From Sphaerisporangium sp. B11E5 (GTDB lineage: Bacteria > Actinomycetota > Actinomycetes > Streptosporangiales > Streptosporangiaceae), in NCBI RefSeq assembly GCF_039871875.1, contig NZ_JBDPMD010000008.1, positions 108,422-172,421 on the forward strand: a stretch of DNA of 64,000 bases. Reading direction: 5' to 3'. The notes beneath the pieces were generated by a model that was not told the DNA's origin, made no database searches, and saw only the letters and a list, made by a program, of their open reading frames with translations. Positions 1,347 to 12,160 of the stretch are shown here, piece by piece. How positions within the stretch are numbered: position 1 is the stretch's first letter; each line of letters opens with the position of its first letter. Both the position numbers and the translations under genes were made by a program.

Positions 1347-1919
1347 TTAGCGGAGGCGGAAGCGTAGATGTGTGACGTACGGGGATTCGGTGACTGACGT
1401 CCGCTCCAGCTCGATGTGCTCGCTGCCGAGGTGTTCGAAGAGGCGGCGGCCGGTGCCGAGGAGGACCGGGGCGAGTTGTAGGTGGATCTCGTCGAGCAGG
1501 CCTGCGCGGATCGCCTGCTGGGCCACGTCGGCTCCCATCAGGGTGACGTGCTTGGTGCCTGCTGCTGCCTTGGCCTGGTGGATGGCGGTTTCGACACCTT
1601 CTGTGACGAACGTGAACGTGCTGCTGTTCATCGGCAGGTCGTCGCGGCCCCGGTGCGTGACGACGAAGGACGGGGCCGGGTAGGGGGTGTCCTTCCAGAT
1701 GTCGATCCCGACGTCGAAGGTCCGGCGGCCCAGTACCACCGCTCCTACGGCGGCGAAGTGGTGCTTGACGATCGTGGAGTCGGTCTCGTTCGTGTCGGCG
1801 TTGAACAGCCATTCGTGCAGACGCAGGCCACCCACCCCCATCGGGTGGTCGACGCCGACGTCGGGGCCCGCGATGAAACCGTCCAACGACATCGTGACGT
1901 GCAAGATGACCGCACCCAT
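1347..1919 (-). CDS. RibD C-terminal domain / dihydrofolate-reductase-like family protein (YwjB-like)
   Basis: MGAVILHVTMSLDGFIAGPDV...TFDVGIDIW...VVTHRGRDDLP...GADVAQQAIRAGLLDEIHLQLAPVLLGTGRRLF is the characteristic RibD_C/DHFR-like motif set. Good GC3. Confidence 0.7.
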   Translation of the reverse strand: MGAVILHVTMSLDGFIAGPDVGVDHPMGVGGLRLHEWLFNADTNETDSTIVKHHFAAVGAVVLGRRTFDVGIDIWKDTPYPAPSFVVTHRGRDDLPMNSSTFTFVTEGVETAIHQAKAAAGTKHVTLMGADVAQQAIRAGLLDEIHLQLAPVLLGTGRRLFEHLGSEHIELERTSVTESPYVTHLRFRLR

Positions 1920-2070: not shown

Positions 2071-2108
2071 AAAGGGGAGAGCCCTCGCCGAGGGGCGAGG
2101 GCTCTCCT
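2071..2108 (-). terminator. Stable GC-rich hairpin immediately after the RHS gene stop
   Basis: GGAGAGCCCTCGCC-GAGG-GGCGAGGGCTCTCC is a perfect 14-bp inverted repeat with a 4-nt loop, 6 nt downstream of the RHS stop codon (2114-2116). Confidence 0.5.
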
Positions 2109-2113
2109 GGTTG

Positions 2114-5100
2114 TCAGGAATACTTGGTCTTGGCGGAGCAGCGGACGTTTCTGGCGTAGCCGTAGATGAAGCCGCCTATCCATCCGAGGACTCTGGCGGC
2201 GCCTGGGTAGCCCTTGGCGCTCGACCAGTGGCCGAGGGCGTTGGAGAACATCGTGCCGAAGGCTTCGCCGCAGTTGAGGCCGTTCTTGACCCGCTGGTAC
2301 TGGGAGAGGCGGGACAGGACGCCGATGATCCAGGCGATGGCTCGGCCGATGTACTTGACGACTTTCTGGCCGACCCATTTCAGGGCGCGAAGACACCAGT
2401 TCTTGCTGACGCGGCAGGCCGTCCACGCGAGCCGGGCGGCGCCGATGATCGCGAGGATGATGGCGGGGATCGCCCGGCCGTCCAGGTCCATCTTGTTGAC
2501 CGGGTCGGCGCAGGTGTACTCGTAGGCGTTGCAGCTGCCGTCCATCATCGGGTCGGACTGCAGGAACCGGCCGAGGTCCGGTGAGTACACGCGGACGCCC
2601 ATCAGGAGGTGGCCGCCCATGGCCTCACCGGATCGTTGCTTGCCGCCGAGCCAGCCGTACCGCTGGCCGGTCTGCTCGCCCGCCGGTTCGCCGAACTCCT
2701 CGTAGTCGTAGAGTTCCGGCTCGCTCAGGTCGCCGTCGATGGTGGCGGCGATGTCGCCGTGCAGGTTCGTCAGTTGCAGCCGTACGCCGCCGTCGGTGGA
2801 CGCGGTCGCCACCAGGTCGTCGTCGGGGCCGTTGACGAGCCGGGTGCGGGCGCCGGAGCCGTCCTCGCTGATCCAGTTCGGTTCGTCGGTGTCGTCACCG
2901 TAGTGGTGGACCTTCCTCGACGAGTCGGTCCAGGTGCCGTCCACCTGTGTCTGCACCTGGGACGACCGGAACCGGTGCAGCGGGTCCAGCGTCCAGGTCT
3001 GCCGGGCGTCGCCGGACTCCTGGCTCTGGATGACGTCGTTGACGTGGTAGCCGTTGGACAGCCCGTCCGGGGTCCGGGTCGTGCGGCCGAACGCGTCGTA
3101 GACGTATCCCTCGCCGGTCAGCCGGTCGGCGGAGTCGTACTCGTAGGTCTGCGACGCGTCGGCGTCCGCCGTGTCGCAGGAACCGTCCTCGGCCGGGTCG
3201 AAGACGGACCTGGCGGTCCGGTTGGACCGCGTGTCGTAGGTGTAGGTCCGGGTGACGCAGCCGGCGGTGGCGGCGCTGCTGTGCGCCACGCCGGTCAGCC
3301 GGCCGAGCCCGTCGTAGGTGTATCCCTTGCCGCCACCGGTGTACTCGTGCGAGATCCACTGGCCGGCGCTGTTCCTGACCACCGACTCGGCGAAGATCAC
3401 CGCTCCGTCGCTGTCCCGGGTGTAGGTGCGCGACACCGGCTGGAGGTTGGCGTCGAGCTGGTCGGTGCGGGTCAGGCCACCCGGGTAGGTGAGCTTGACC
3501 AGTTGCCCGTCCGGCGAGTACCCGGCGGTGAACGTCCCGGCGACGCTGTCGGTGTAGCCGGTCACCATGCCGCGCGGCTCGGCCGCCCGGTCGTAGGTGA
3601 AGGTGCCGGAGCCGGTCGGGTCGGTCACCTTGACCTTCTTGCCGAACCGGTCGTACTCGGTCACCGTGCCCGCGCCGTCGGCGTCGGCGTAGCTCACCAG
3701 CCGGCCCAGCGCGTCGTACTCCCGGATGACGGACACGCCGTCCGCGGTGCTGCGCGCGACCCGGCCGCTGGCGGCGTCGTAGGTCGTGCTGGTCGCGGGG
3801 ACGGCCGCCCCGACATCGGACGTGACGGCCCTGCCGGTGACCCGCGCGGCGGCGTCGAACGTCGTGGTCGTCGTCCTGGTCTTGCCGTCGGCGGTCTCGG
3901 TGACCTCCGCCTCGTCCAGGTAGCGGTTGTAGGAGGTGACCCGGCGGACCGGCAGGTCACCGGTCATCCGGGCGGGATCGTGACCGGTGACGGCCCCCGC
4001 GGCCCTGGTCAGGCAGACCTGACCGGCCCATTCCGGCGCGTTCCCGCAGGCGGCGTCCGCGGAGTTGGCGCCGGCCGTGTAGTAGACCACCGCGAGGGTG
4101 CGGGCGTCCGCGCCGTCGGCGCCGACGCCGAGCGCCTTCACCAGCCGGCCGGCGTTGTCGTACACCCGGTAGGACGTGAGGTTCTTCCCGCCGGCGTCGT
4201 TGACGGTCTTGGTGGGCCTGCGCAGTGTCCAGCCCGATGCCCCGCCGTGCTCGGCGGCGTATCCCGTCGTGGAGACCCGCAGGTCCACCGCCGGGTAGCC
4301 GTCGATCCTGGCGCCCTGGGTCTGTTTCGTGACCAGGTGGTACCGGGCTCCGTCGGGTTTGTCCTCGTCGTAGGCCATGGCCATGCTCGGCCGCCCGATC
4401 GCGGTGGACCCGGTCGCGATCGCGCTCAGCGGCCCGGTGCCGTCCGGGTCGGGGACCTCGCGTTCCATCACCATCGTCACCGTCGGCCCGACCGCCTCCA
4501 GCAGGTCCACCCCGTCGCTGCTGTAGGTGTTCGCCGTGGACAACGCGTACGCGCGGCTGGCGGTGTCGGAGTCCAGCAGGCCGAGTGCGGCGAGGTAGGT
4601 GTTCGCCTCGGGCAGCTGGCCGAGCGCCAGCGACCGGTCGGTGGCCTCCAGGGTGCGGACCACGTTGCCGAACCTGTCGTACTCCTGGGTGTCGATGTGG
4701 CCGCCCGGGCTGGCCACGTTGACCGCCTGGCCGTGCGGGTTCAGGTAGTAGACGGTCGCGAACCGGTACCCGGCGGTGCCGGGCACGGCGCCGGTGGCGC
4801 TGTTGCGGGCCGGTGTGTCCTCCGGCCCGAAGACCGCGACGGCCTCGGTCGGCACGTCGGACTGGGCCCAGGTGGCCGCGGCGGCGGCGTTCAGGTCGTA
4901 CGGACCACCCGCGGCCTTGGTCAGTGGCGTGTTGTAGACCAGGTTGGTGGCGACCTCCCCGTCGGTGGCGGTCCTGGAGCCGGGCTGCAGCGCGGCCCGG
5001 CGGATCCGCAGCAGCCTGCCGGGGTGCTCGTCGCCGGCCAGGTCGGCGATCTGGTCCGGGGTGAGCGCACGACCGTAGACCCGGGCGTCGTCGATGCCGC

Positions 5101-8100
5101 CGTGCCAGAGGTTCGCGGCGGCGCCGGCCCACTTGGCCCGGCCGACGACGTAACCGCCGGAGGCGTTCCAGCCACCGGTCGCCGCGGTGGTGGACTGGGC
5201 CACCCCGTTGACGTAGAGGGTCATCCTGCCGGTGGCCGTGTCGTACACGCCGGCGAGATGGGTCCACTGCCCCAGCGTGGGCGCGACGTTCGAGACGGCC
5301 CGCACCGGGGTCGAGCTCTCGCTGTCGGAGGTGACCCGGGAGAACGACCACCGGTCGTTCGCGGCCACGTAGTTCAGGAAGAACCCGCTGGTGGACGACC
5401 CGTCCTTGGAGACGATCGTCCGGTTGACCGACTTGTCGGTCAGCCTGGCCCAGGCCGAGACGGTGTAGGACGAGGTGTTGGACAGCGGCGTGCCGGCCAC
5501 CCGCACCTCGGCGCCGGACGCGCCGGTGAAGGTGAGGGCCCGGTCGTCGGGCCGGTCCGGGTCGTTGCCCTGGCCCCATCCGACGCCCGCGGCGAGCGTG
5601 CCGGTGCGGCCGCTGCCGGACGAGTCCGCCGCCGAGGTGCCCGAGCCGGCGTCGAGGTCGAAGCGCAGTGCGGCCGCGTCGACGTCCGGGTTGCCGTAGT
5701 CGAACATCCACGGCAGCTCACCCGCCGGCGTCACCTTGCGGACCCGGCCAGCCGCGTCGTACTCGTAGCCCGTCTTCAGTGCCGGGCTGACGCGCGGGTC
5801 CCAGACCTCGCGCAGGCGGCCCAGGTGGTCGTACGCGTACCTGGCCACCTCCACGGCGGTGGTGGCGGACGCCGCGGGGTCCCAGGTCCACAACTTCACC
5901 GCGCCGACCCGGTCGATGTGGTCGCCGAACACGGTGTCGCTCAGGCCCGGCGTGGTGGACGTGGCGTAGACGTACTCCAGCACCTGGCAGCCGCGCGGCA
6001 GGGTGGTCCCGGAGCACTTGCCGGCGTCGTCCACGCCTGGCTGGGCCGGGTTGACCACCCGTTTGAGCAGCATCCTCCCGCCGGAGGTGTCGTAGCCGTA
6101 GCGGGTGGTGGTACTCCCCGCCGCCGCCCAGGTGGAGGCGAGGGCCCAGACGCCGGCCTGCTGGGTGAACTCCGACACCGTGCCGTCGGTGTCGGACAGC
6201 CGGTACGTGCCGGCGTCGACCCGCGTGAGCGACAACTCCTCCACACCCGGTTCCGGGGTGAACGTCGAGCCGTCCGCGTTCCGGGAGAACGTGATCCAGC
6301 CGCCGTCGATGGTGTTCACCTGCGCGACCGACGGCTCAGGGAAGGCCAGCGTCGTGTACGTGGCCGCGGCCGGGCCGCCGGCGATCCCGGTGGACCACGC
6401 CGGGCCGAACGGCGCGACGATCTCGGTGAACGACAGGTTGTCCCAGTAGACCTTCTTCCCCGAGCCGCCCTGCGCGCCGTTGTACAGGCGGAAGAACGCC
6501 TCGGTCGCGCCGGCGGGCACGGTCATGTCGACCGACAGCTCCTGCCAGCCCTCGGTGAACCCCGCCATCGGCGAGGCCACCTCGTGGTAAGTGGTGCCCA
6601 CCCGGTGGAAACCCACGACGCGCAGGCCGCGCGAGGCGAACGCCGGTGCCAGTCCGGTGCTCGCCGGCACGTAGATCCAGCCGGTCATCCGGTACGTCCG
6701 GCCGGGCTGCATGCCGAGCCGCAGGCCGCCGCTGTCGCCGCCCACCGCGACGAAGGTGTCGTTGCTGGTCGTGGTCACCGGCGTGATCTCCAGCGAGTCG
6801 ACCGGGGTCTCCTCGCCCTGGCCGTACGCGGTGGACCGGGCCGCCGAGGACATGGACGGCACGGTGAACCCGGTCAGGTCGGAGATCTGCTGCTGGCCGG
6901 CGGTCAGCCGTTCCGGCATCGTCACGTAGCCGGTGGACGCGCCCCGCGAGGAGGCCGTCCGCGTCACCGTCAACCCCATCTCGTCCACGTCGGTGGCGGA
7001 CAGGCCGTGATCACCGGTGAGCAGGTTGACCATCCCGGGGCCGATCTCCTCGTCGGCGCCGTGCGCTCCGCTGGTGTCCACGGTGATCCGCACCCAGGGC
7101 GTGTCGTAGACCGGCGTGGTGGAGGACGCGGTGAAGATGCGGGCGCGGACCTCGACGACACCGCCGATCTGCCCGAGGGTGGCGGCGGCGTTCCAGACGG
7201 CATGCCCGCCGAGCGCGGTGAAGGGCACCGGGGCGGCGGCCGTGGCGGTGATCGGCGCGCCACCGGCCGAGGTGAGGTTCGCCGAGGGAATCGGCCGTGC
7301 GGGGGCGCCGGGCCCGCGCCGGTATTCGAAGTACGCCCGGGTGTAGCCGGCGACCGGTGTGGTGATCTGCAGCTTGGTGCGCCTGACGACGTTCGCGCCC
7401 GGCAACGGCTGGGCGAGCGCCGCGTTGCCCGCGGAGAAGGTGTAGAGGTTCGGCTCCGACAGGTTGCCGGCCCGGTCCTTCGCCTGCACCGTCAGGACGC
7501 GCTGCCCGTCCCGGGGCTTGAGCGACACGCCGACGGGGCCGGTGGCGGCCACGGTCGTCGTGTCGCTGTCGGTGTCGAGGCGGTAGATGAACCCGGCCAG
7601 ATCGGTCGTGTCCGCGGCGGGGGTGAAGGTGAACGTGTCCGCCTGGCCGGCGCCGCCATGCGGCTGGCCGTCGTCCTTGTAGATGAGCGCGGACACGAAC
7701 GGCACGCCCGGCTGGCCGGTGTCGACCCTCAGGTCGGCCCATCCGGTCCATGGGCCGTAGCCGTGCGGGTCCTTCGCCCTGACCCGCCACTGGTACGTGT
7801 TCGCGCCGTTCAGATCGGTGGTCAGTTGCCAGGACGCCGGCGATCCGTTGGTCCACGCCGGACTGCCGGACCGCAGGCCGGAGACGGCCACCGCGGCGCC
7901 GGTCATCTTGTCGCGGACCTCGAACTCGGCCTGCAGGGTCTGGCCCGCGTTGCCGTCGTTCAGCTTGGCCGACAGCGTCGGCCGGGTCGCCGAGGTCCAC
8001 GCGTCCGCCTCACAGGCGGCGTAGCACGGGGCCACCGACATCGCCGACGGCGTGGTCGGCGCGGCGTTGTAGGTGATGGAGACCGACGGCGGGTTGGCTC

Positions 8101-9535
8101 CCTCGGAGGAGTGGAACCGCTTCCAGGACAGGTGGTTGGTCTCGCTGGTGCCGCGCAGCATCAGGCTCACGTCGTTCCACCGCGAGCTCGCCGCGGACTG
8201 CAGCGCCTTGCCCACGTCGACGGACACCCAGCCGTCACCGCAGGAGGAGCTGTACCCCTTGGTCTGCGTCGACGTACCGACCTTCTCCCGGGCCACGGGC
8301 TGGGAGCCGATCCGGACGGAGGCGTCCACCCGGTCCGTGCGCCACGCTTCCCAGCTCGCGGCGGAACAGGACCACGAGTGGTAGTTGTACAGCCGTAACT
8401 GGGCTCCGATGACCTGCGTGTTCCAGATGCCCGTCGTGTCGAACCGCAGGAACGACCGCGCCACCCACGAGCCGCCGTCGTCGGAGTACCCGAGCTTCAG
8501 ATCGCCCGTTCCCGACTGGTCGGAGGTGTACCCGGTCTGCACGAAGGTGTCGAACGCCACCGGAAGCGACGACGGCGGGTCGATGGTGACCGGGAACTGG
8601 AGGTCCGCGCGGTCCAGGAAGGCGGCGTCCGGGGTCAGCGTCATCGTCGCGCGCCCCGCTCCCCGGGTCTCGGTGGCCAGGCCGACCTCGCCCCGCTTGC
8701 GGTGTTCCAGCGTCTGCGGCGAGACCTCGGCGTCCCACATCGCCGGTGTCTGAGCGCGGGACACCGTCTGCCCCGACTTGTCCTTGAAGACCATCCCGCC
8801 CATGCCGTCCGGAGCCGCGGTCAACCGTCCGGTCCGCATCGGCAGCGAGAGCCGGCGCACCTGGGACAGCGCGGCCCGGTCCTTCACCACGAAGAACTGC
8901 TGGTAACCGGTGGCGTGGGCTTCCAGCACCAGGTCCACGCCCGGCAGCACGCCGGGGTAGGTGGCGACCCGCCCGGACAGCACCGGGTCGGGAAGCGGGC
9001 CCGTCCACGACACGCTGGTCCGCGTGTCCCCCTCACCGAGCCAGACCACCTCGTGCTCGCCGGGGGCGGTCGTCGCCCCGGAGAAACGCAGGCCACGCGG
9101 GTGCGCCTTCGGAGCCACCGACCCGTCGGCCTGCCGCTGCAGGGTCAGGTCGACGGGCACCCACGCGTCGCCGCGCTTGACCCGTACCGGCGCCAGCGAC
9201 TGCTCCCGGGTCAGGGTGCCGTCCGGGTTGGCGAACACCTGGGTGGTCTCGGTGCGCAGGTCGGCGACCTCCACCCGGCCGCCACACAGCCGCGCGGCCA
9301 CCGCGGCGGAAACCGCGTCGGCCCGCTCAGGCGCGCACTGCGGCTTCCGCGCCGCCTGTTCCCGCGCGGCCTGGGCCGCCTTCGCCGTCGCGGCTGAGGC
9401 GGCCTCCGCCGGGGGTACCGCGACCGCGGCCAACGTGACGGCCATGACCACCGCCATGGCCGAACAAGTGATACGGATCCACCACGATCGCCATCCGTGG
9501 CTGGTGGTGGACATGCGAAACAGAAGCCCTGGCAT
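2114..9535 (-). CDS. Secreted RHS/YD-repeat polymorphic toxin (2473 aa) with N-terminal signal peptide, LamG-like domain, YD repeats, RHS core (…YSPDLGRFLQSDP…DPVNKMDLDGR) and ~125-aa C-terminal toxin module
   Basis: Signal peptide MSTTSHGWRSWWIRITCSAMAVVMAVTLAAVAVPPAEAASA. Dozens of YD repeats (YTYDGLGRLT, YEYDSADRLT, YVYDAFGRTT…). Canonical RHS core ending in the PxxxxDPxGL-type motif. RBS ACGGGGA is 7 nt upstream of the ATG at complement 9535. Confidence 0.85.
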   Translation of the reverse strand: MPGLLFRMSTTSHGWRSWWIRITCSAMAVVMAVTLAAVAVPPAEAASAATAKAAQAAREQAARKPQCAPERADAVSAAVAARLCGGRVEVADLRTETTQVFANPDGTLTREQSLAPVRVKRGDAWVPVDLTLQRQADGSVAPKAHPRGLRFSGATTAPGEHEVVWLGEGDTRTSVSWTGPLPDPVLSGRVATYPGVLPGVDLVLEAHATGYQQFFVVKDRAALSQVRRLSLPMRTGRLTAAPDGMGGMVFKDKSGQTVSRAQTPAMWDAEVSPQTLEHRKRGEVGLATETRGAGRATMTLTPDAAFLDRADLQFPVTIDPPSSLPVAFDTFVQTGYTSDQSGTGDLKLGYSDDGGSWVARSFLRFDTTGIWNTQVIGAQLRLYNYHSWSCSAASWEAWRTDRVDASVRIGSQPVAREKVGTSTQTKGYSSSCGDGWVSVDVGKALQSAASSRWNDVSLMLRGTSETNHLSWKRFHSSEGANPPSVSITYNAAPTTPSAMSVAPCYAACEADAWTSATRPTLSAKLNDGNAGQTLQAEFEVRDKMTGAAVAVSGLRSGSPAWTNGSPASWQLTTDLNGANTYQWRVRAKDPHGYGPWTGWADLRVDTGQPGVPFVSALIYKDDGQPHGGAGQADTFTFTPAADTTDLAGFIYRLDTDSDTTTVAATGPVGVSLKPRDGQRVLTVQAKDRAGNLSEPNLYTFSAGNAALAQPLPGANVVRRTKLQITTPVAGYTRAYFEYRRGPGAPARPIPSANLTSAGGAPITATAAAPVPFTALGGHAVWNAAATLGQIGGVVEVRARIFTASSTTPVYDTPWVRITVDTSGAHGADEEIGPGMVNLLTGDHGLSATDVDEMGLTVTRTASSRGASTGYVTMPERLTAGQQQISDLTGFTVPSMSSAARSTAYGQGEETPVDSLEITPVTTTSNDTFVAVGGDSGGLRLGMQPGRTYRMTGWIYVPASTGLAPAFASRGLRVVGFHRVGTTYHEVASPMAGFTEGWQELSVDMTVPAGATEAFFRLYNGAQGGSGKKVYWDNLSFTEIVAPFGPAWSTGIAGGPAAATYTTLAFPEPSVAQVNTIDGGWITFSRNADGSTFTPEPGVEELSLTRVDAGTYRLSDTDGTVSEFTQQAGVWALASTWAAAGSTTTRYGYDTSGGRMLLKRVVNPAQPGVDDAGKCSGTTLPRGCQVLEYVYATSTTPGLSDTVFGDHIDRVGAVKLWTWDPAASATTAVEVARYAYDHLGRLREVWDPRVSPALKTGYEYDAAGRVRKVTPAGELPWMFDYGNPDVDAAALRFDLDAGSGTSAADSSGSGRTGTLAAGVGWGQGNDPDRPDDRALTFTGASGAEVRVAGTPLSNTSSYTVSAWARLTDKSVNRTIVSKDGSSTSGFFLNYVAANDRWSFSRVTSDSESSTPVRAVSNVAPTLGQWTHLAGVYDTATGRMTLYVNGVAQSTTAATGGWNASGGYVVGRAKWAGAAANLWHGGIDDARVYGRALTPDQIADLAGDEHPGRLLRIRRAALQPGSRTATDGEVATNLVYNTPLTKAAGGPYDLNAAAAATWAQSDVPTEAVAVFGPEDTPARNSATGAVPGTAGYRFATVYYLNPHGQAVNVASPGGHIDTQEYDRFGNVVRTLEATDRSLALGQLPEANTYLAALGLLDSDTASRAYALSTANTYSSDGVDLLEAVGPTVTMVMEREVPDPDGTGPLSAIATGSTAIGRPSMAMAYDEDKPDGARYHLVTKQTQGARIDGYPAVDLRVSTTGYAAEHGGASGWTLRRPTKTVNDAGGKNLTSYRVYDNAGRLVKALGVGADGADARTLAVVYYTAGANSADAACGNAPEWAGQVCLTRAAGAVTGHDPARMTGDLPVRRVTSYNRYLDEAEVTETADGKTRTTTTTFDAAARVTGRAVTSDVGAAVPATSTTYDAASGRVARSTADGVSVIREYDALGRLVSYADADGAGTVTEYDRFGKKVKVTDPTGSGTFTYDRAAEPRGMVTGYTDSVAGTFTAGYSPDGQLVKLTYPGGLTRTDQLDANLQPVSRTYTRDSDGAVIFAESVVRNSAGQWISHEYTGGGKGYTYDGLGRLTGVAHSSAATAGCVTRTYTYDTRSNRTARSVFDPAEDGSCDTADADASQTYEYDSADRLTGEGYVYDAFGRTTRTPDGLSNGYHVNDVIQSQESGDARQTWTLDPLHRFRSSQVQTQVDGTWTDSSRKVHHYGDDTDEPNWISEDGSGARTRLVNGPDDDLVATASTDGGVRLQLTNLHGDIAATIDGDLSEPELYDYEEFGEPAGEQTGQRYGWLGGKQRSGEAMGGHLLMGVRVYSPDLGRFLQSDPMMDGSCNAYEYTCADPVNKMDLDGRAIPAIILAIIGAARLAWTACRVSKNWCLRALKWVGQKVVKYIGRAIAWIIGVLSRLSQYQRVKNGLNCGEAFGTMFSNALGHWSSAKGYPGAARVLGWIGGFIYGYARNVRCSAKTKYS

Positions 9536-10102
9536 CAGAATTCCCCGTTTGATCGACCGGCAGGCGCCGTGATGGCTCGAACTGATGGCCGGTGCGGTCC
9601 CGAGACTCCGGGCACCGCGACGGCACTCGTGTGGTCAGTTGTGGATCATGTGGACGAGCAGGTCGCCTGGGAAGACCGCCTCTCGATCAGCGCTCGCGAG
9701 CGCTGCCTACAGCATCGGGAGATATCCGAGGGATGTCATTGACCGTGAGTGCTCCGCGCTTGACGATGCGTGCTGACATCACGCGTCGCGGTCTCGCGTT
9801 CAGGCCGCGCGGAGGGTCGGAGGGTGCTGGTCGAGATGGTGGCGTCTGCTGGGTGGACGGGACACACGAAGGGCCAGACGGCAGGGGCGAGGTCATCGGC
9901 GGTGTGGCGAACGCGTCCGCCGCCGGGGAACTCGATCTCCCATTGCTCTAGATCTTGACCGTTACGGCACCAAGTTGCAAGACCTCACGTGAGCGATCAC
10001 TGCCGTGGGGGGGCCAGCCGTACGCCGGATACACCAGGTGGCCTCATTGAGCTGGGGATCTGTCCTCACGAGACTGATCAGCATCCCTCCAGAGAGGTCG
10101 CC

Positions 10103-12160
10103 ATGGACGCCAAGCCGTACGCACGAGGCTTCACCGGTGCCAGGATCACGGCTCTGGCGATCATCGTGATCATGGTGGTCGCCCTCGGGTACGTGAGCGT
10201 GCGAGGCGAGGCGAGGCCGGTGGTGCCCGCGGGTGCCAGGGCGGGGACGCTGACCCTGAAGGGCTGCACGTACGACACCGAGGCCGGAGCCCTCCCGGCC
10301 GACTGCGGCACGCTGGTGGTTCCGGAGAACCCCCGGGTCCCCGGTTCGCGCCTGATCGCGTTGCCGGTGACCCGCGTCCGGGCCACGGGGCCGAATCCGG
10401 CCGAGCCGATCTTCCGGCTCGCGGGTGGGCCCGGCCAGTCGAACATGTCCTTCCCGGAGGCGAGCCGTCTGACCGAGCGGCACGACGTCGTCCTGGTCGG
10501 GTACCGGGGCGTCGACGGGTCGGTGGTCCTCGACTGCCCCGAGGTGACCTCGGCGCTGCGGCACTCGGCCGACCTGGTCGGGGCGGAGTCGTCGCGTCGC
10601 GTGTCACAGGCGTTCACCGAGTGCTCGGGGCGGCTGACCAGGGGCGGCGTCGACCTCGACGGGTACTCGCTGCCTCAGCGTGCCGACGACCTGGAGGCGG
10701 CGCGCACGGCCCTCGGCTACCGGCGGGTCAACCTGCTCAGCCAGAGCGCGGGAACCCGCACCGCGATGATCTACGCCTGGCGGCATCCCGAGTCGATCCG
10801 CCGGTCGGTGATGTTCGGTGTCAACCCGCCGGGCCACTTCCTGTGGGATCCCGCGATCACCGACGACCAGCTCGCCCACTACGCCGAGCTGTGTGCCGCG
10901 GACGACGGGTGCGCCGCGCGTACCGACGACCTCACGGCCTCCCTCAGGGCCACCGCGGCCCGCCTGCCGGACCGCTGGGGCCTGCTGCCCGTCAAGGACG
11001 GCAACGTCCGCGCCGCGACACTGTTCGGGCTGGTCAACTCCACGAAAGCCGCCGCGCCGCTCAACGCGCCGACGGTGCTCGACGCCTGGCTGGCGGCGGC
11101 CGACGGCGACCCGAGCGGGTTGTGGGCCCTCTCGGTGCTGGCCGACCTGTCGTTCCCGGCGTCCTTCGTCTGGGGGGAGTCGGCCTCGGCCGGCATGATC
11201 GACGCCGGGCCGGTCGACCGCTACTACGCCGCGGGCGGCGACCCGGGCTCGATCCTCGGCAACGCCGGCGCGGACCTGCTGTGGGCCGGAGGCGGTCTCA
11301 CCAAGGCGTGGCCGATCAGCCCCGGCAACCGGGAGTACCAGACGGTCCGGCCGACCGGCGTGGAGACCCTCCTGATCAGCGGTAGCGTCGACTTCACGAC
11401 CCCGGCGCAGCCGGCCACCGACGAGCTGTTGCCCGCCCTGTCGAACGGCCGTCAGGTGATCCTCACCGAGCTCGGGCACGGCACCGACTTCTGGCGCTAC
11501 CAGCCTGAGGCGAACCGGCGGCTGCTGACCGCGTTCTTCGACGACGGCCAGGTCGACACCTCCCGGTACGAGACCCACAGGGTCGAGTTCGAGGTCGGGC
11601 CCCTCAGTCTGCCCACCGTCGCGAAGGTCCTCGTGGGCGTCCTGGCCGGCTTCGCGCTGATCGCCGTCGCCCTGCTCGGCGCGATGGCGTACCGGGTGCG
11701 CCGCCGGGGCGGCTTCGGCCCGAGGGCCGGCGTCTGGCTGCGTGTCCTGACCCCGATGTTCCTCGGCCTCGGCGGCTGGTCCACGGCCGTGCTGATCGTG
11801 TCGATCCTGTGGCCGGCGGCGTTCCCCGGCGACCTGCTCGTGACCGTGCCCCCCATCGGCGCCGCCATCGGGCTCGGCGCCTACCTGGCCTGGGTGCGGC
11901 GCGACCGGCCCCCCCGGATCCGGCATCGAGGCCTCGCAGCGGCACTGGCCGGTTCGTTCGCCGGCGCGTGGCTCGGTTCCTCCGCCGCCGAGGGCCTCGC
12001 CGGGACGATGACCACGATCGTCGGCGCGGCCGCCATCGCCAACCTCGCCCTTCTCGTCCTGGACGTCTTCTTCGCCCCCGGCCGATCGGCCCTCCCGGTC
12101 CCGGCCGCACCCTCCCCGACGGCCACCGCCACGAAGCCCGCTGGAGTCCCACCCAAATAG
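10103..12160 (+). CDS. Membrane-anchored alpha/beta hydrolase (TAP-like/tripeptidyl-aminopeptidase-type) with C-terminal multi-TM domain
   Basis: N-terminal TM helix, oxyanion-like GGPGQS, nucleophile elbow LLSQSAGT. C-terminal ~180 aa has four hydrophobic helices. RBS AGAGAGG before the ATG at 10103. Confidence 0.7.
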   Translation: MDAKPYARGFTGARITALAIIVIMVVALGYVSVRGEARPVVPAGARAGTLTLKGCTYDTEAGALPADCGTLVVPENPRVPGSRLIALPVTRVRATGPNPAEPIFRLAGGPGQSNMSFPEASRLTERHDVVLVGYRGVDGSVVLDCPEVTSALRHSADLVGAESSRRVSQAFTECSGRLTRGGVDLDGYSLPQRADDLEAARTALGYRRVNLLSQSAGTRTAMIYAWRHPESIRRSVMFGVNPPGHFLWDPAITDDQLAHYAELCAADDGCAARTDDLTASLRATAARLPDRWGLLPVKDGNVRAATLFGLVNSTKAAAPLNAPTVLDAWLAAADGDPSGLWALSVLADLSFPASFVWGESASAGMIDAGPVDRYYAAGGDPGSILGNAGADLLWAGGGLTKAWPISPGNREYQTVRPTGVETLLISGSVDFTTPAQPATDELLPALSNGRQVILTELGHGTDFWRYQPEANRRLLTAFFDDGQVDTSRYETHRVEFEVGPLSLPTVAKVLVGVLAGFALIAVALLGAMAYRVRRRGGFGPRAGVWLRVLTPMFLGLGGWSTAVLIVSILWPAAFPGDLLVTVPPIGAAIGLGAYLAWVRRDRPPRIRHRGLAAALAGSFAGAWLGSSAAEGLAGTMTTIVGAAAIANLALLVLDVFFAPGRSALPVPAAPSPTATATKPAGVPPK

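Follow-up and report, generated by a model that had tools for sequence, protein, structure and literature searches.

It is established that new toxic activities can be found at the C-terminal tips of RHS proteins; the RHS systems of actinomycetes, to our knowledge, are almost unstudied. The present analysis concerns one such tip, the C-terminal tail of an RHS/YD-repeat protein encoded on the minus strand of a 64,000-nucleotide stretch of Sphaerisporangium sp. B11E5 (contig NZ_JBDPMD010000008.1, positions 108,422 to 172,421), which as a whole is referred to below as the window. The RHS-associated core of this protein ends with …DPVNKMDLDGR at residue 2354, and the tail begins at residue 2355, exactly where the match to TIGR03696 stops. 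An initial annotation had placed at 2114-2520 a novel, hydrophobic and basic tail of about 125 residues and had read it as a recombined, membrane-active toxin tip. The sequence quoted there is exact, but the domain is 119 residues long, and the span given for it includes the stop codon and the last 16 codons of the core.

The tail domain and its family

As had been described, the tail is amphipathic to hydrophobic, strongly basic and furnished with several cysteines: in the window it has an isoelectric point (pI) of 10.5, 17 lysines and arginines against a single acidic residue, four cysteines and a grand average of hydropathy (GRAVY) of +0.26. Four helices are predicted by AlphaFold2 (AF2) at tail residues 2-22, 24-58, 60-82 and 90-108, in models of low confidence (pLDDT 61 from the single sequence and 58 from a multiple sequence alignment of five sequences). 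The first helix is of transmembrane (TM) grade, with a Kyte-Doolittle mean over 19 residues of 1.86 in the window and of 1.9-2.5 in three homologs, and the segment holds an invariant arginine; the helices beyond it are strongly amphipathic (hydrophobic moment 0.55-0.67).

Alignment of the eight full-length members of the tail family, which is described below, identifies as invariant the residues P3, R14, A19, C20, R21, K24, C27, A30, K32, W48, R61, G65, L66, C68, G101, F102, G105, R111, C112 and S119. The family alignment offers no conserved stretch as long as 7-10 columns. The four invariant cysteines all lie at helix termini, C20 and C27 at one end and C68 and C112 at the other. The fourth helix carries a glycine zipper of the kind known from EsxX and Tse4, that is, the pattern (G/A/S)xxxGxxxG in a hydrophobic helix; an equivalent small-xxx-G zipper is found in the other full-length members (L001, L007, L008, L009, L010, L011 and L013; L numbers denote loci throughout), and G101, F102 and G105 are nearly invariant across the family. 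No acidic residue, histidine or other potential nucleophile (D/E/H/S/T) is invariant within the aligned full-length tails. At the level of anatomy the membrane-active character proposed by the initial annotation is thus upheld: one helix is of TM grade, the amphipathic helices are cationic, the glycine zipper is conserved and no D, E or H is invariant. As far as it can be read from sequence, this anatomy fits a non-enzymatic, membrane-interacting toxin module.

The tail belongs to no family that could be recognised. Neither the single tail nor the family profile has a significant match in Pfam, NCBIfam, PHROGs or the sequences of the PDB, in agreement with the earlier statement that no nuclease, deaminase or other known toxin motif is present. 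None of the ten tails now known matches any Pfam family at E up to 5, and the sub-threshold Pfam matches of the tail to Romo1 (E=0.26), DUF3177 and SpoIIM were taken as noise. A Foldseek comparison of the tail models with the PDB gave 0 matches, and fold searches with these low-confidence models returned only generic helical hairpins.

Homologs are correspondingly few. A word-indexed search of 5.8 billion proteins with the tail as query found nothing, while phmmer, run exhaustively against 1.84 billion cluster representatives, produced five matches, four of them real homologs with E between 1e-14 and 1e-6 and the fifth (P0004) a low-complexity repeat protein that was dropped. The RHS protein of the window itself was recovered by neither search. 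Genome and context look-ups brought the family to ten members in total: the window, Sphaerisporangium aureirubrum (L008), Micromonospora phaseoli, M. marina, two further Micromonospora sp., and the loci L005, L007, L011 and L013, which are metagenome or read-assembly contigs. The S. aureirubrum tail is 91% identical to that of the window. Each of the ten tails is immediately preceded by an RHS core end, which reads D[LV]xG[KR]; their lengths range from 111 to 126 residues, and their pI lies between 10.2 and 11.4 in nine of the ten and is 9.9 in the truncated tail of L004. When a metagenome contig collection was searched at the DNA level, a long two-motif pattern that matches every known member had 0 matches, and a shorter motif had 13, all of them due to chance, none encoding a tail or a partner gene. 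On the sequence record the tail thus represents a real, very rare and undescribed family, and the novelty claimed for it holds in that sense, although it is not unique to the window.

The partner gene in relatives and the window locus

The next gene after the tail in eight of the ten members encodes a Pfam Clp_N protein of roughly 385-420 amino acids, which is intact in seven of them and broken into two decaying open reading frames (ORFs) in L005; this partner lies directly after the tail in L001-L007, L009-L011 and L013. By coordinates its start overlaps the stop codon of the tail in L001, L002, L003, L004 and L010, and the sequence of L009 reads ATGA at the junction; there are also two gene calls with a longer overlap between tail and partner and two with a short gap. 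The partner is a mildly acidic protein with no signal peptide and no clear TM segment, and it is an internal duplication in which a Clp_N repeat closes each half (hhalign probability 96%). Its last repeat aligns with repeat 2 of the N-terminal domain (NTD) of actinobacterial ClpC1 (E about 1e-8 to 1e-12); only one Clp_N repeat is recognisable per half, and the remainder is highly diverged. The partner family comprises about 27 clusters at 90% identity, its named members all coming from Micromonospora and the others from metagenomes or read assemblies.

The arrangement of tail and partner genes is that of exchangeable modules. Orphan cassettes, each consisting of a core stub, a tail and a partner, occur beside the transposases of insertion sequence (IS) elements in L001, L006/7 and L011. 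The partner persists in L004, whose tail is truncated, and in L012 and L029/30, which have no tail left, and in L027/28 a 17-residue scar of the C-terminal end of a tail (VGFVYGAVRNQRCTVKE) remains just upstream of it. The RHS gene of L005 is full-length and has the same core end, but its tail, of 148 residues, is a different one; this tail is followed by a 74-residue ORF with two TM segments and, further along, by a stub (EDLDGK), a frameshifted copy of the window-type tail and a split partner; this, to judge from the sequence, is a classical displaced-tip array. The variability characteristic of RHS tips is therefore seen both as the tip swap in L005 and as the orphan stub and tail cassettes in L001, L007 and L011. 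In addition, loci whose tails are more alike also have partners that are more alike (r = 0.95 for the two identities over 15 pairs), which is what linked modules should show. Because of the orphan cassettes, the partners that lack a tail and the displaced-tip array of L005, there is evidence for regarding the Clp_N protein as the cognate immunity or neutralising protein of the tail, and the same genomic patterns support the view that the tail behaves at the family level as a toxin tip that can be exchanged and that has an immunity gene of its own. No Clp_N immunity protein appears in the 2012 catalogue of polymorphic-toxin immunity proteins (PMC3482391), and none was found in further literature searching; the partner would accordingly add a new immunity class built of Clp_N repeats.

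Three side observations were made at these loci. The 148-residue tail of L005 (4465-5489) is basic, rich in cysteine and tryptophan and of no recognised family; together with the 74-residue two-TM ORF it likely forms a second toxin-immunity pair, and it may itself be decaying, given the atypical GC content of its codon positions. The orphan partners of L027 (2307-3035) and L028 (1990-2718) are flanked by a peptidase S9 gene on one side and a SpoIIE phosphatase gene on the other. Downstream of the partner in Micromonospora sp. NPDC050276 (L010), at a distance of about 600 bp and on the other strand, there is a ClpP-family protease gene (10783-11382); M. phaseoli does not show this arrangement, which is probably a coincidence.

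The window itself has no such partner. Directly after the tail come the stop codon, a hairpin and a RibD_C gene (Table 1), with no linked cognate immunity gene among them, and in the 64 kb of the window no homolog of the partner was found (best E 0.09 by tblastn and 0.2 by a profile hmmsearch). The S. aureirubrum ortholog likewise has no partner within 16 kb. The RibD_C gene occupies the site at which relatives have the Clp_N partner, and it is not an immunity candidate. In S. aureirubrum the RHS gene is followed by a frame (L008 8260-9498) that overlaps the last 15 or so codons of the tail and encodes a beta-lactamase-fold protein with a lipobox (LPGC) and a possible twin-arginine signal; this lipoprotein was considered as an alternative immunity protein and rejected, there being no counterpart in the window. 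For the Sphaerisporangium lineage, represented by S. aureirubrum and the window, either the immunity gene lies elsewhere or the toxin targets non-kin and does not affect its producer. Toxins of polymorphic architecture that lack a linked immunity gene typically serve in conflicts between species and not in those among kin (PMC12419801, section 31). The toxin with a partner in one lineage and the toxin without one in the other form a natural pair for asking why some toxins of the polymorphic type need no linked immunity.

The hairpin that follows the RHS gene is strongly stable as RNA (-32.7 kcal/mol, z = -4.65, 0 of 200 shuffles as stable). A consensus terminator scan did not call it, since too few T residues follow it, the tract (CCUUUCC) being weak. 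The other neighbours are unrelated genes and comprise TetR, α/β-hydrolase, GNAT, ABC-2 permease, CDF, glycosyltransferase, APH and thioredoxin genes; no genes of a type VI (T6SS), type VII (T7SS) or other secretion system are found among the neighbours of the RHS gene in the window.

Within the RHS protein, YD/RHS repeats are recognised by PF05593 (E=1e-20 over three stretches) and also by TIGR01643. The PVNKMDLDGR motif at the core end is the expected autoproteolysis site, cleavage being presumed by analogy with the Rhs family (Tse5, PMC10684867). The Sec-like signal sequence is also kept in the Sphaerisporangium ortholog. The Laminin_G_3 insertion is present in the RHS bodies of the window and of Sphaerisporangium and is missing from the Micromonospora homologs, which share only four aligned columns over residues 1301-1500; it may mean that the target-surface specificity differs. 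Opposite the RHS gene an antisense frame of 1929 codons is open on the plus strand (2609-8398). It is the usual artefact of high GC content, and the GC content of third codon positions (GC3) backs the minus-strand frame only.

Table 1. Features of the RHS gene and of its downstream flank, all on the minus strand, with positions given in the window
Feature	Position	Strand	Residues	Basis and remarks
RHS/YD-repeat protein gene	2114..9535	(-)	2473 aa	ORF; Pfam and NCBIfam domains; GC3 0.95
Putative Sec signal peptide	9401..9535	(-)	1-45	Basic n-region, hydrophobic ITCSAMAVVMAVTLAAVAV, then PPAEA|A; read from the translation
CBM96 / DNRLRE carbohydrate-binding-type domain	8072..8569	(-)	323-488	PF24517 E=2e-11; NF033679 E=9e-19
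Laminin_G_3 (ConA-like lectin) insertion	5045..5515	(-)	1341-1497	PF13385 E=9e-27
RHS-associated core domain	2477..2704	(-)	2278-2353	TIGR03696 (Rhs_assc_core) E=1.8e-12, model positions 1-75 of 76
C-terminal tail domain, 119 aa	2117..2473	(-)	2355-2473	Stop 2114-2116
Tail helix 1, TM-grade hydrophobic	2414..2473	(-)	Tail 1-20	AIPAIILAIIGAARLAWTAC; last residue is invariant C20
Tail helix 2, long cationic amphipathic	2300..2413	(-)	Tail 21-58	Holds C27, K32 and W48; hydrophobic moment 0.64-0.67
Tail helices 3-4	2138..2296	(-)	Tail 60-112	R61-x3-GL-x-C68 motif; zipper A93xxxG97xxxG101xxxG105; closed by R111-C112
Perfect 14-bp GC-rich hairpin	2076..2107	(-)		7 nt past the RHS stop; terminator-like
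RibD_C (dihydrofolate-reductase-like) gene, next downstream	1347..1919	(-)		PF01872 E=3e-17

Base composition, history and selection

The lower GC content that the initial annotation had seen in the DNA of the tail is real: it is 0.650, compared with 0.721 in the rest of the RHS gene, and of the windows of the same size (360 nucleotides, codon-aligned) that can be drawn within the core none is as low, while 4.9% of same-size windows across the whole 64 kb lie at or below the tail value. By codon position the tail has 0.52/0.53/0.90 and the rest of the gene 0.64/0.57/0.95. The expected composition was obtained by resampling the amino acids of the tail with the codon usage of the core, which yields a GC of 0.668 ± 0.007 and a GC3 of 0.948 ± 0.020. 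Because the resampled expectation is as low as 0.668, about three quarters of the dip is attributable to the amino-acid composition of the tail, which is rich in K, I, Y, N and F. What remains is a modest deficit in GC3, which is 0.899 where 0.948 would be expected (12 codons ending in A or T, P about 0.02). A shortfall of this kind is found in all five of the full-length homologs examined, and is significant in four, with a weak trend in L009 (P = 0.12).

Between the window and Micromonospora, identity is 38-45% over the tail, about 29-45% over segments of the body and 55-60% over the core domain. Tail and body have thus diverged together, and the tail in the window gene is therefore not a recent graft; since the divergence is equal and the dip mostly compositional, the GC content was rejected as a sign of recent foreign origin. 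The description of the tail as a recombined polymorphic tip consequently stands for the family, in which exchange is witnessed by the IS-adjacent orphan cassettes and the L005 array, and fails for the window tail as a recent event.

Comparison with the S. aureirubrum ortholog gives a ratio of nonsynonymous to synonymous substitution (dN/dS) of 0.095 for the tail and 0.30 for the body, so that the tail, on the evidence of substitution patterns, is under strong purifying selection, stronger than that on the body, and is a maintained, functional domain. The dS of the tail is high (0.61, against 0.229 ± 0.055 for 119-codon windows along the gene) while its dN stays low, which may mean either that silent sites evolve faster there under weaker codon bias or that an older allele has recombined in. 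The DNA shared by the two genomes is limited to the RHS gene and about 60 nucleotides upstream of it (window 2113-9598 and L008 825-8322, 89.7% nucleotide identity); the match breaks off at the stop codon, and on neither side is the flanking DNA related. The RHS gene seems from this alignment to have moved, or to have been re-embedded, as a single-gene unit.

Proposed mode of action and comparison with known systems

The reading that we favour, and to which we would assign about an even chance of being correct, is that the tail is the tip of a Sec-exported protein of the RHS polymorphic-toxin type, a small non-enzymatic domain which attacks the cytoplasmic membrane of the target. The protein would be exported by its N-terminal signal peptide; the YD repeats would fold as a cocoon, in which the aspartyl-protease motif of the core would cut after …DLDGR and leave the 119-residue tail free inside; and the CBM96/DNRLRE and LamG modules would bind the target surface. 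The freed tail would enter the membrane by way of its N-terminal hydrophobic helix and its C-terminal glycine-zipper helix, with the amphipathic helices, which bring the charge to +16, resting on anionic lipid, and the outcome, by analogy with Tse5-CT, EsxX and Tse4, would be depolarisation or leakage. In the exported protein the four invariant cysteines would probably form two disulfides. In relatives of the Micromonospora type, the translationally coupled, soluble tandem Clp_N protein would neutralise the tail in the cytoplasm, as ExiAB does for EsxX. Beyond the domain assignments we infer every step of this mechanism. If it is correct, the tail family would add a new small cationic, cysteine-stapled glycine-zipper toxin domain to those already known.

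Several considerations weigh against membrane attack, which we infer from the sequence and its anatomy. The AF2 models are of low confidence (pLDDT 58-61) and match generic helical hairpins only, and a single segment of the tail, itself holding an invariant arginine, reaches TM-grade hydrophobicity. With a polybasic stretch right after its hydrophobic helix, the tail would be prone to stalling in the Sec translocon. In being soluble and lacking a signal peptide the partner differs from the membrane or periplasmic immunity proteins of known pore-forming tips; an intracellular action fits it at least as well, and it complicates a simple model of a pore formed from outside. Finally, a toxin that is under purifying selection and has no partner in 64 kb (the window) or 16 kb (S. 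aureirubrum) is unusual if that toxin is harmful to its producer.

In an unlikely alternative, the tail is a stop-transfer anchor rather than a delivered toxin: the hydrophobic helix and the basic residues after it would halt Sec translocation, so that a basic portion of about 95 residues stays in the cytoplasm of the producer and the Clp_N protein binds it as an adaptor, regulator or quality-control factor. The residues R21, K24, R29 and K32 directly after the hydrophobic helix, together with the net charge of +16, agree with the positive-inside rule; the partner is cytoplasmic, as such a binding protein should be; a Cys4 site in the cytoplasm could bind zinc; and the loss of the partner has been tolerated in the window lineage. 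An anchor is nevertheless hard to reconcile with the core, whose protease motif is conserved and whose cleavage motif is separated from the helix by no linker at all, the residues after a core being normally inside the cocoon, and the orphan cassettes, the retention of the partner after loss of the tail and the L005 array are hallmarks of toxin and immunity genes and not of an anchor.

The domain type of the partner suggests another explanation, which we consider quite unlikely: the tail could be an intracellular, non-enzymatic binder toxin directed against the NTD of ClpC1-type unfoldases, with the partner acting as a target-mimicking “sponge” and with the hydrophobic helix and the charge of the tail assisting its passage through the membrane. 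The partner, a soluble protein of the cytoplasm, is an internal duplication made of Clp_N repeats, the last of which aligns with repeat 2 of the ClpC1 NTD; catalytic residues are absent from the tail; and antibiotics of actinomycetes repeatedly target the ClpC1 NTD, while the Clp_N-only protein ClpC2 protects by sequestration (PMC10030653). The resemblance is however a poor one, with one recognisable Clp_N repeat in each half of the partner, and immunity proteins of a generic kind have often been recruited from helical-repeat scaffolds. The argument moreover proceeds from the domain type of the partner, and literature searching found no protein toxin with the ClpC1 NTD as its target. The specific form of this idea, a protein toxin against the essential actinobacterial ClpC1 NTD for which the tandem Clp_N partner is the target-mimicking sponge, we hold to be improbable. 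Were it true, the tail would be a proteinaceous counterpart, delivered by contact or by particles, of cyclomarin, lassomycin and ecumicin, the Sphaerisporangium lineage including the window would possess such a weapon without a linked sponge, and, should the partner prove to mimic the ClpC1 NTD, the tail would indicate how a validated anti-mycobacterial target might be reached with a protein.

Very improbable, lastly, is an enzymatic membrane-embedded toxin, such as a Lipocone-like enzyme acting on lipid head groups or some other small helical enzyme, for although the tail is a hydrophobic four-helix domain, several Lipocone families serve as polymorphic-toxin tips (PMC12419801) and the invariant R14, R21, K24, K32, R61 and R111 could bind phosphate head groups, none of the ten members matches a Pfam family even at E up to 5, in a search of Pfam rather than of dedicated profiles for the Lipocone group (VanZ, Min-Wnt, SAA, TelC and others), no nuclease, deaminase or other enzymatic tip was matched in Pfam, NCBIfam or the PDB, no solved structure was matched by PDB sequence or Foldseek searches, and the invariant residues are solely P, R, A, C, K, W, G, L, F and the terminal S, which provides no D/E/H/S/T nucleophile in a domain with one acidic residue in the window.

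Among known systems, a tip with which a membrane-attacking RHS tail invites comparison on grounds of architecture is Tox-WTIP; in the catalogue of Zhang et al. 2012 (PMC3482391) no other tip is pore-forming. It too is RHS-associated, non-catalytic and a predicted membrane-spanning helical domain. Tox-WTIP differs in being proteobacterial and in having two TM helices, the first with RxxR and the second with Wx[ST]IP; a regular-expression search of all ten tails for these signatures found no Wx[ST]IP and no conserved RxxR.

The delivery of a pore-forming tip by an Rhs cocoon has its precedent in Tse5 of Pseudomonas aeruginosa (PMC10684867, PMC9637101). Like the window tail, Tse5-CT is small, helical and non-enzymatic, is hydrophobic or amphipathic in character, and lies behind the aspartyl-protease site of an Rhs core within a cocoon (in the window a predicted one); membrane depolarisation is the proposed outcome for both. 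By family assignment and by PDB sequence and Foldseek searches no relationship between the two was detected, and no Pfam family is common to them; the four invariant cysteines are specific to the tail family of the window. Tse5 is delivered by a T6SS (PAAR/VgrG) in a Gram-negative bacterium, whereas the window protein comes from an actinomycete and appears to use export of the Sec type; and Tse5 has a linked immunity gene, tsi5 (PMC10684867), whereas relatives of the window have a soluble protein of the Clp_N type as partner, which the window itself lacks.

For the partner family the nearest functional precedent, by analogy, is ClpC2, the Clp_N-only sponge of Actinobacteria (PMC10030653), which is likewise a stand-alone protein of Clp_N repeats and protects by binding a toxic ligand, as the partner is presumed to do. 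ClpC2 binds cyclomarin A, a small cyclic peptide, and closely resembles the ClpC1 NTD, whereas the partner is an internal duplication of roughly 390 residues that is linked to the gene of a protein toxin and is lacking from the window.

The closest parallel to tail and partner together is offered by EsxX of the Staphylococcus aureus T7SS, a depolarising glycine-zipper toxin that is toxic from both sides of the membrane and is neutralised in the cytoplasm by the soluble, adjacently encoded ExiAB (PMC12744356). Here as there, a glycine-zipper tip from a Gram-positive bacterium is accompanied by an adjacent soluble partner that would sequester it. The carriers differ (LXG and T7SS for EsxX, RHS and Sec for the tail), ExiAB is unrelated to Clp_N, and EsxX has in addition a membrane immunity, ExiCD, of which no equivalent was seen here; no shared family was found, and the likeness is one of description. 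With these differences stated, EsxX and ExiAB provide what we regard as the best analogy for the tail and its Clp_N partner.

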